Both the position numbers and the translations under genes were made by a program. 64,000 nt of DNA from a virus. This document shows positions 46,773 through 51,011 of this stretch, in pieces (within the stretch, counting starts at the first letter, position 1; every line of letters begins with the position of its first letter). The stretch is taken from the IMG/VR virus record IMGVR_UViG_3300033571_015173, positions 1 through 64,000 of that record; one strand, 5' to 3'. Below the pieces are notes generated by a model, which worked only from the letters and a program-made list of their open reading frames with translations, ran no database searches and was not told where the DNA came from.

Positions 46773-46911
46773 GATGATGTTGCGTAGTAACCCCTGGAGT
46801 ATTTGCCTCTGGGGTCGCTCGGCTTGTCGGCTTGACAACGATCCCAATAATTATGATCCTGATATCGGTTTTCGAGTTGTGATTGGGAGGAGAAATGAAA
46901 AGACCAGTTAG
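46756..46911 (+). CDS. VR-like module 3: [51 protein letters not shown]
   Basis: AAGGAG RBS. Confidence 0.75.
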
Positions 46912-47350: not shown

Positions 47351-47504
47351 ATTCCATAAGATATTGCGTGGTGGTTCTTACCTTTTTGATCCTGAATACT
47401 GCCGGTCTGCATATTGGTATGTTGGCCGCCTTGTATATCGTGATCACCACTACGGTTTTCGGATTGTTATTGGAGGAGCAAGCCATGAAAAGCAGAAGCT
47501 TTAA
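47334..47504 (+). CDS. VR-like module 7: MKKQSEFHKILRGGSYLFDPEYCRSAYWYVGRLVYRDHHYGFRIVIGGASHEKQKL
   Basis: Overlapping start. Confidence 0.75.
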   Translation: MKKQSEFHKILRGGSYLFDPEYCRSAYWYVGRLVYRDHHYGFRIVIGGASHEKQKL

Positions 47505-47773: not shown

Positions 47774-47907
47774 GTCAGAAAATAGCGCGTGGTAATTCCT
47801 GGTTTGGAAATCGTACTTACTCTAGATCAGCCTCCCGCAATGTTAGCATCCCCAGGTATGATGAAGATATTTTTGGCTTTCGTATTGTGATCAAAGATAA
47901 ACCATGA
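47770..47907 (+). CDS. VR-like module 10: MSQKIARGNSWFGNRTYSRSASRNVSIPRYDEDIFGFRIVIKDKP
   Basis: ATGA overlap. Confidence 0.75.
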   Translation: MSQKIARGNSWFGNRTYSRSASRNVSIPRYDEDIFGFRIVIKDKP

Positions 47908-48164
47908 GTCAGAAAATAGCGCGTGGTAATTCCTGGTTTGGAAATCGTACTTACTCTAGATCGGCCTTCCGCAATGTTAGGACCCACAGATATGATGGGG
48001 AGATTTTTTTTGGCTTTCGGATTGTAATGAAGAAAAACCATAAAGTAAAGACAATGCGTGGTGGATGCTCGGGCAACGACATAGAATATTGTCGCTCTGC
48101 ATCTCGTACTATGAGCGGATCACACAATGCCAGTTTGATTATCGGCCTTCGAGTTGTGAAATGA
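47904..48164 (+). CDS. VR-like modules 11+12 fused in frame (second ATG at 48027)
   Basis: Two RG..S...RSA.R...G(F/L)R units in one ORF; module 11 is a recent duplicate of module 10. Confidence 0.75.
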   Translation: MSQKIARGNSWFGNRTYSRSAFRNVRTHRYDGEIFFGFRIVMKKNHKVKTMRGGCSGNDIEYCRSASRTMSGSHNASLIIGLRVVK

Positions 48165-48307
48165 AAAACGAAAAAGAAAAATCAATCCGCAGCGGATCCT
48201 GGGTTGCTAATGACGATCTCTGCCGCTCACCCTTTCGTTCAAGAGAATCTAACAAGTACTGGGACAACTACATTGGATTCAGGATTCTTATCAAGAAAAA
48301 GCCATGA
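48161..48307 (+). CDS. VR-like module 13: MKNEKEKSIRSGSWVANDDLCRSPFRSRESNKYWDNYIGFRILIKKKP
   Basis: ATGA overlap. Confidence 0.75.
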   Translation: MKNEKEKSIRSGSWVANDDLCRSPFRSRESNKYWDNYIGFRILIKKKP

Positions 48308-48462: not shown

Positions 48463-48604
48463 GTCTATACGTGGTGGTTCTTGGGGTGATTATTCAGCGT
48501 TCTGTCGGTCGGCTGTTCGGAATGACTATCACTCCAACAATGACCATGATAACCGTGGCTTTCGGATTGTAGTTAGAGAGTACAAGAATGGAAGAGCAAA
48601 TTAA
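48449..48604 (+). CDS. VR-like module 15: MKELKSIRGGSWGDYSAFCRSAVRNDYHSNNDHDNRGFRIVVREYKNGRAN
   Basis: GAGG RBS, GTG start. Confidence 0.75.
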   Translation: MKELKSIRGGSWGDYSAFCRSAVRNDYHSNNDHDNRGFRIVVREYKNGRAN

Positions 48605-49325
48605 GTACAAGTCTCAGCGTGGTGGGTCGTACTATAACTTTCCCTGGCCCTATCGTTCGAGTTACCGCATTAGGAGTAACTCCAAAGATGCTGATTCTCT
48701 TCTCGGTTTTCGGATTGTAATCATTGTTCATTTATTCGTGAGAACAACTATGCCTGAGTTTCAAATTGAGATGGTGAATATTCCTGCTGGAGAATACGTG
48801 ATGGGTTCTCCAGACAATGAACCTGGTCGCTTCTCTGATGAAGAGCAACACCTGGTTAAGCTTGAGGGTTTCAGGATGAGTAAGAATCTAATTACTCAGA
48901 AAGAGTGGAGGTTTGTTGCCAGCTTGCCACAAATAGATATTCCACTGAAACCTAGCCCCTCCTATTTTACGGGGGACGATCTGCCGGTGGAATCTGTTAA
49001 TTGGTATGAAGCAATCGAGTTCTGCAAGCGTCTTTCAATTTACCTGAATGAGGAGGTAACTTTACCCTCTGAAGCTCAGTGGGAGTATGCTTGCAGAGCA
49101 GGAACCACTACTGCCTACTACACTGGAGAGACATTGGATCTGACGGAGGCGAACTTCTGGGCTGAAGGAAGTCCGAAGAAGACCACCCCGGTAGGAACTT
49201 ATCCTCCGAATGCCTGGGGACTGCATGACATGCACGGCAATCTGTGGGAATGGTGCCTAGATGATTGGCATGATACCTATGAAGGTGCTCCCACTGATGG
49301 CAGTGCCTGGATTGATCCAGAGTAG
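48588..49325 (+). CDS. FGE-sulfatase (SUMF1/CLec-fold) protein, circularly permuted: module 16 followed by core (core ATG 48750)
   Basis: IPAGEYVMGS, PVESVNWYEAIEFC, LPSEAQWEYACRAG, PNAWGLHDMHGNLWEWC; stops before RGGSW, which is instead N-terminal. Confidence 0.9.
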   Translation: MEEQIKYKSQRGGSYYNFPWPYRSSYRIRSNSKDADSLLGFRIVIIVHLFVRTTMPEFQIEMVNIPAGEYVMGSPDNEPGRFSDEEQHLVKLEGFRMSKNLITQKEWRFVASLPQIDIPLKPSPSYFTGDDLPVESVNWYEAIEFCKRLSIYLNEEVTLPSEAQWEYACRAGTTTAYYTGETLDLTEANFWAEGSPKKTTPVGTYPPNAWGLHDMHGNLWEWCLDDWHDTYEGAPTDGSAWIDPE

Positions 49326-50958: not shown

Positions 50959-51011
50959 TTAATAGATAGAGGCATTTCCAATCCTGGGGCCTCTATCTTC
51001 GATTTGTCAAA

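Follow-up and report, generated by a model that had tools for sequence, protein, structure and literature searches.

The locus described here raises the question of how a phage could make use of sixteen short, variable modules stored in tandem directly 5' of a single protein core that lacks such a piece: whether by rearranging its DNA, or by expressing the modules and completing the core with them at the protein level. The locus lies in the window analysed, the first 64 kb of a virus record that is complete at 87.8 kb and has direct terminal repeats (all coordinates are those of the window); the virus is cyanophage-like. A sequence-only reading had proposed that the array acts as a deletion switch, and had offered as an alternative that a module-less core is complemented in trans. 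The explanation favoured here, tentatively and with a likelihood not far below even, is that the array is an expressed, hard-wired module library whose members complete the core after translation. In this proposal the array would not be rearranged at the DNA level but expressed as a library; each module would supply the ligand-binding and strand-closing C-terminal part (~45 aa) of a C-type-lectin (CLec) fold of the FGE type, and the core the remainder of that fold. Module 16 would do so in cis, making the protein a natural circular permutant; the remaining modules would be made as free small peptides and act on the core in trans or by displacing module 16, so that a single infected cell could contain a mixture with up to 16 binding specificities.

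Genomic setting

The array is preceded by a Gam-like / Sipho_Gp157 gene (45945−46478, + strand; PF05565, 1e-29; phrog_253 Mu Gam-like, 2e-24), the TGA of which overlaps the ATG of module 1 as ATGA. The 245-aa gene that carries the core is flanked by this Gam-like gene and by an exonuclease gene, a recombination-gene neighbourhood. Rfam and tRNA scans of 44000−51000 returned no matches, so that no ribozyme, intron or tRNA explains the join between module and core. A 1585-aa ORF without a Pfam or PHROG match lies just 5' of the array unit (39834−44591).

Anatomy of the module array

The array consists of 16 units of ~140 nt each (46475−48749), which follow the pattern M-leader-RGGSW-x6-(C/S)RSAxR-x12-GFR(I/V)V. 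The modules are separate small ORFs of 36−66 aa, except that modules 11 and 12 share one frame; each begins at an ATG or GTG of its own, stays open beyond GFRIV and (11/12 excepted) overlaps the preceding stop by 4, 14, 17, 20 or 50 nt. In order, the module frames are 2, 0, 1, 2, 0, 2, 0, 1, 2, 1, 0, 0, 2, 1, 2 and 0; since they shift in this way, the array is not one polyprotein. Fusion of the modules through a different genetic code or through stop read-through was considered and rejected, as neighbours differ in frame and all three stop codons are used. A search of the protein collection with a single module matched nothing but the module itself; the stand-alone module relatives from that collection discussed below came from a profile search.

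All modules are on the + strand, and their starts are of several kinds. Module 1 (46475−46633, 52 aa) opens within the overlap with the Gam-like gene. An SD site precedes module 2 (46614−46772, 52 aa; AGGAGG, −10.2 kcal/mol), module 3 (46756−46911, 51 aa; AAGGAG), module 4 (46895−47056, 53 aa; GGGAGGAG), module 5 (47040−47192, 50 aa; AAGGAGGG, −11.9 kcal/mol), module 8 (47485−47685, 66 aa; GGAGGAG) and module 9 (47636−47773, 45 aa; GTG start, GAGGAG); module 6 (47189−47350, 53 aa) combines an ATGA overlap with the SD site GGAGG. Modules 10 (47770−47907, 45 aa), 13 (48161−48307, 48 aa) and 14 (48304−48462, 52 aa) begin in ATGA overlaps. Modules 11 and 12 occupy a common frame of 86 aa (47904−48164), with an internal ATG for module 12 at 48054; module 7 (47334−47504, 56 aa) is without an SD site, and module 15 (48449−48604, 51 aa) has a GTG start. 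Module 16, the last of the array, is part of the 245-aa ORF.

In the variable columns of the modules the third codon base is C or T in 79% of codons, compared to 53% in other ORFs of the phage (p 4e-19), and the corresponding value for the module leaders is 32%; the variable columns are rich in N, D, Y and S, and their share of K, E, Q, W and M is 9% versus 21%. Such an NNY pattern would be expected from adenine mutagenesis of AAY codons, and the bias, which resembles that of a diversity-generating retroelement (DGR), is a trace of origin and not a sign of activity. A search of all 87.8 kb for reverse transcriptases gave no match (PF00078, E ≤ 0.1), and no TR/VR pair differing at template adenines alone was found; modules 10 and 11, the only near-identical pair, have mismatches of mixed types that are not adenine-specific. 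Because of the NNY fingerprint, the lack of a reverse transcriptase and the mixed mismatches between modules 10 and 11, the modules look like archived products of a retroelement, not active targets. The variable proteins of known DGRs (TvpA, 2Y3C; TaqVP; Mtd) have the fold in common with the present protein, and vary in the same C-terminal stretch, RGGSW...CRSAxR...GFRV, with the same NNY bias; however, this phage has neither a reverse transcriptase nor a TR/VR pair, its variation is held in 16 fixed modules, and its domain is split and permuted so that the module is not C-terminal.

The 245-aa protein as a circular permutant

The ORF at 48588−49325 is open over 245 aa, and its residues 61−242 correspond to positions 4−208 of the 255 in the FGE-sulfatase profile PF03781 (Pfam, 144.3 bits against a gathering cut-off of 23.3; 131.8 bits in the genome search), while a module mini-ORF matches positions 213−254 of the same profile (Pfam, one module). 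The core therefore stops just short of RGGSW, and what it lacks is exactly what the modules supply, which bears out what had been read from the sequence; the chain as a whole does not present the PF03781 domain in canonical order. The core stops at WIDPE-TAG, where homologues run on, 5−12 residues later, into LLRGGSW. Module 16 (MEEQ...GFRIVI) and the linker IVHLFVRTT form the N-terminal part of the ORF (48588−48749, + strand) and read in frame into MPEFQIEMV, the in-frame upstream fusion that the earlier reading had described; the module-less FGE/CLec core itself spans 191 aa from an internal ATG to the WIDPE-TAG end (48750−49325, + strand).

An assembly error restoring the normal order, which was named at the outset as one finding that would overturn this arrangement, was not seen. 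In a second sample, a contig of about 97% identity covers 48422−49502 without an indel within the 245-aa ORF; the protein collection contains the identical 245-aa protein on two contigs, and a 14.6-kb sister contig encodes a 245-aa protein that is 98% identical, with four amino-acid changes and an unchanged module 16. The 245-aa ORF is not an assembly error, since it is kept in the sister strain and permuted cores are also found on four other viral contigs (L001, L002, L031 and L033), which likewise have in-frame modules upstream of a core ending before RGGSW. The ORF is a genuine and conserved circular permutation.

AlphaFold2 with a 62-row alignment predicts the core with a pLDDT of 84−97 and a pTM of 0.81; module 16, whose part of the protein is covered by 7 alignment rows, is predicted with a pLDDT of 36−68, and the single-sequence prediction of the 245-aa product has a pLDDT of 30. 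Foldseek with the AlphaFold2 model retrieves the solved members of the fold PvdO (1.7e-12), FGE (1.7e-07) and TvpA (3.4e-07). Each module has one conserved Cys at the most, that of CRSA, and 7 of the 16 lack it; true formylglycine-generating enzymes have a catalytic pair of cysteines. The permutation had been thought structurally plausible and this holds: in the CLec fold the N- and C-terminal strands pair antiparallel (PMC6328139), therefore the slot is in principle accessible to a module relocated N-terminally.

We infer that the free modules dock onto the same core. Free peptides would be expected to lose out to a tethered module 16 unless some core is also produced without a module; the candidate start for such a product, the internal ATG at 48750, has a weak ribosome-binding site (−2.8 kcal/mol). 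The alternative of a module-less core complemented in trans fits the locus better than a switch does, but is weakened in its choice of start codon.

Expression signals

An anti-SD duplex of −6 kcal/mol or stronger is found at 8 of the 16 module starts, compared to 9% of internal ATG/GTG sites, and five further module starts lie in ATGA stop-start overlaps. These starts and SD sites alone do not discriminate between the models, because a recombination model needs both as well. The transcription unit is opened by the promoter-like motif TCCRATCCNGGGGC (45889−45902, + strand), the next copy of which is at 50977 with none between; the window holds 10 copies against 0.09 expected, and these are followed by TAYCTT and lie upstream of genes (45889−45902, 50977−50990 and eight more between 18045 and 30373). 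The motif looks like a phage-specific promoter that would bracket the unit of Gam-like gene, array and core. A hairpin with a perfect 14-bp stem and a U-rich tract (49440−49481, + strand) is the likely end of the unit. Taken from these signals, the Gam-like gene, the 15 module mini-genes and the module 16-core gene appear to form one translationally coupled operon. Directly past the terminator-like hairpin is a 15-nt tandem repeat, AAAGACCTCTCAAAG, of 4.9 copies (49494−49567), which lies inside a small ORF (49458−49679).

Several modules per core in related loci

When 240 related loci were scanned with the core and with an HMM of the module, the majority proved to be ordinary core+module genes, but many viral loci have multiple modules per core in three further layouts. 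In the first, the four viral contigs with permuted cores (52−62% identity) place 2−4 in-frame modules 5' of a truncated core that ends a few residues past DGSAW. In the second, the core is followed by an out-of-frame module and then by an in-frame module; the out-of-frame module is in the −1 frame at 17 of 17 distinct junctions, and at these a slippery site stands in the frame of the core, being GGGAAAG at 10, AAAAAAG at one and CTGGGGGAG at six. Heptamers of the form X XXY YYZ are thus present at 11 of the 17 junctions, and are candidate −1 frameshift sites; GGGAAAG is the slippery site of lambda G/GT. The −1 product at the junctions is a complete module closed by a stop, while the unshifted reading of the module is a linker rich in Ala, Ser, Thr, Gly and Pro that leads to the next site. 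Successive slippery sites serve 3−5 modules in L005, L083 and L085, with five in L005 (6546−7550 of that locus); other loci with −1 junctions are L003, L008, L010, L015−L018, L024, L026 and L027. We know of no arrangement comparable to a cascade of up to five successive frameshift sites, as in L005. In the third layout, that of L243 (4366−5351 of that locus), the order of the parts is normal and the protein is split: WCLSDYEGS-TGA closes the core ORF, and an ATG 2 nt past this TGA opens a separate two-module ORF. Five diverged stand-alone two-module proteins from the protein collection (P0003−P0007) share with L243 a conserved Met leader.

In the window no slippery heptamer joins module to core, and X XXY YYZ heptamers are not its means of connecting modules. 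Compared to the −1 frameshifting that yields alternative C-termini in lambda G/GT and dnaX, the relatives share a lambda-type heptamer, in the frame of the core, at the core/module junction; the junctions of the window are in contrast separate starts, with SD and ATG or with ATGA overlaps. As read from their sequences, the three layouts of the relatives would make several modules from one genome simultaneously, and the docking module in relatives would often lie on a separate chain or at a distance from the core along the sequence. An expressed library is favoured for the present array because its relatives express several modules at once, and often far from the core.

The nearest cellular homologues are from Scytonematopsis, Calothrix and Nostoc (50−58% identity), often with an extra lone module ~1.7 kb downstream; this suggests filamentous cyanobacteria as the host group. 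A lone extra module downstream is the layout typical of a DGR template repeat. Four loci in Calothrix, Nostoc and Scytonema genomes (L162, L166, L173 and L176) have tandem core+module genes together with the lone module ~1.7 kb downstream.

Strain comparison and the array as a possible cassette store

Contigs of four runs were compared with the region, and those that aligned come from one study and two samples. Among 26 listed module SNPs between two strains, 14−17 fall at the third codon position when read in the mini-ORF frames, roughly half being synonymous; the substitution pattern is that expected of coding constraint on the modules. The gene calls of the sister strain retain mini-ORFs (P0012, P0013, P0027, P0032 and P0002), among them module 9, which is kept as P0027; a scan of viral contigs with P0012 gave no match. 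The sister strain differs from the window by events at the level of whole modules: at 46800−46867 a wholly different variable part of module 3 (P0032) stands between identical leader and tail, at 47408−47606 the DNA around modules 7−8 is unlike, and at 47869−48007 a 137-nt deletion merges modules 10 and 11, which share 59 nt, so that P0002 consists of the merged 10/11 module and module 12. This deletion is the sole length polymorphism of the array in the contigs of the two samples. Exchange of modules over evolutionary time is therefore real, and in this one strain comparison the expressed position, module 16, is invariant while upstream modules turn over.

These events are what would be expected if the array were an evolutionary cassette store, in which the module 16-core protein works alone, modules 1−15 are a reservoir whose translation is incidental, and ordinary homologous recombination reshuffles the store within the array or between co-infecting phages. 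That strains of ~97% identity differ in module 3, modules 7−8 and modules 10/11, and that the array lies among recombination genes (the Gam-like gene and the exonuclease), speak for such a store, which is the strongest of the rival explanations but on balance unlikely: it leaves unexplained the SD sites, ATGA coupling and third-position bias of 15 unexpressed cassettes, the invariance of module 16 during turnover upstream of it (again from one strain comparison) counts against it, and the relatives express several modules per mRNA. The silent cassettes of pilE/pilS and vlsE are similar in being a tandem store of variants adjoining one expression site, and in the exchange of modules between strains; here, however, the cassettes have their own starts and ribosome-binding sites, and homology is ≤15 nt and on one side only.

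The proposed deletion switch

The expressed library must also be weighed against rearrangement within an infection, as first proposed: crossovers at the GFRIV box would delete the intervening modules, fuse module n to the core, and yield sub-populations with new specificities within a burst. The shared DNA box on which this idea was founded is certainly there; GGYTTTCGRRTTGT with ≤1 mismatch has 15 sites in 46586−48718 and one unrelated site, against 0.14 expected, and a looser match gives a 16th site in the array at 48275. The predicted in-frame fusion was also reproduced, since simulated crossovers that join any module n to module 16 at the G of GFR always leave one open frame of 236−246 aa, with a start codon supplied by the module itself; such an outcome is to be expected whenever homologous coding segments recombine. 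Together with the over-represented box, the phage recombination genes flanking the array and the one natural deletion between neighbouring modules are the points in favour of a switch.

The machinery and the substrate for it are, however, not apparent. The complete 87.8-kb phage has no match to tyrosine or serine recombinases (PF00589, PF00239) and, as stated, none to a reverse transcriptase; no inverted repeats were found beyond one hairpin and a 75% chance pair; and the longest exact identity of modules 1−14 to module 16 is 7−15 nt, with ≤9 nt for six modules. The whole array is present in assemblies from two samples without any module-n/core joint, though contigs drop rare forms. A switch of this kind would be one-way and would destroy the library, and the relatives handle the same problem at the level of translation. 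The box and its open frames are confirmed, and the switch built on them is not supported; it is considered improbable, rare deletion variants being of a kind that contigs would miss. Shufflons and invertible tail fibres (R64 Rci/pilV, Mu Gin, P1 Cin) likewise combine a constant part with alternative C-terminal segments that set specificity, but this array has no recombinase and no inverted repeats, and its segments have the same orientation and all lie 5' of the constant part.

Possible targets of the modules and of the product

A different role for the free peptides would be to hit FGE/CLec proteins of the host as decoys or poisons, for example DGR-diversified sensors of filamentous cyanobacteria. 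The closest cellular homologues (50−58%) are indeed in Scytonematopsis, Calothrix and Nostoc with DGR-like arrangements, the gene is placed in an early, DNA-metabolism region in this phage and in relatives, and CLec domains of DGR-type cellular homologues have been proposed as antigen sensors (PMC10907252). The host domains, however, have their own covalent module, and the gap of the phage core and the modules fit exactly 1:1; as a result of this match the phage core is the likely partner, and an action on host proteins is held to be a slim prospect. Least probable of all is that the modules are decaying tandem duplicates without function: some of them depart from the scaffold, for instance module 12 (RGGCSG), module 14 (RGGGG) and module 3 (RSNPW), but every one of the 16 has a start and an open frame, the changes between strains are coding-like, and the architecture is kept in the sister strain and echoed in several viral clades.

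If the modules are an expressed library that completes the core, the location of the gene bears on what the completed protein binds. The gene lies in the early DNA-metabolism region and not among the tail genes, and the same is true of relatives, whose multi-module genes have helicase/primase, dCTP deaminase, thymidylate kinase and Sak4-like genes around them; the 245-aa protein has no extra domain for virion attachment. Because of its gene position and the lack of such a domain, the product is more readily seen as a binder inside the infected cell than as a tail receptor-binding protein, and we infer that it binds something there; the early-gene placement raises the question of this intracellular target.

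Significance and comparison to split proteins

CLec-fold variable proteins are a standard example of targeted hypermutation in microbes, and their diversity is to our knowledge always tied to a reverse transcriptase. Variable proteins of this fold are therefore already known; what is new here is that one is diversified without a retroelement, its variable surface being stored as a fixed library of 16 modules beside a body proposed to need one of them for folding. The relatives add at least three other ways of putting several modules on one body. A literature search found no description of module arrays, of split or permuted FGE-type domains, or of frameshift cascades in the FGE/CLec family.

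A broader reading, put forward as a possibility at somewhat less than an even chance, is that cyanobacterial phages possess a repertoire free of reverse transcriptase, in which one CLec body is completed post-translationally by many stored tip modules minted by DGRs; delivery would be by separate peptides in this phage and in L243, by tandem in-frame modules in L031, and by −1 cascades in L005. If true, the diversity would be combinatorial and would arise at the level of proteins. Completion in trans, if confirmed, would be categorically new: free modules completing the body would amount to a natural multi-partner fragment complementation, a new route to viral multi-specific binders, and a compact scaffold-plus-module design that may be of use in engineering binders.

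The closest analogues of such completion are RNase S, the lacZ alpha fragment and strand 11 of split GFP, in which a small end piece closing the fold is likewise separate from the body; the difference is that the one body of the phage would have 16 alternative natural pieces. The split locus L243 and the two-module proteins P0003−P0007 show the same likeness to split proteins, in normal gene order.
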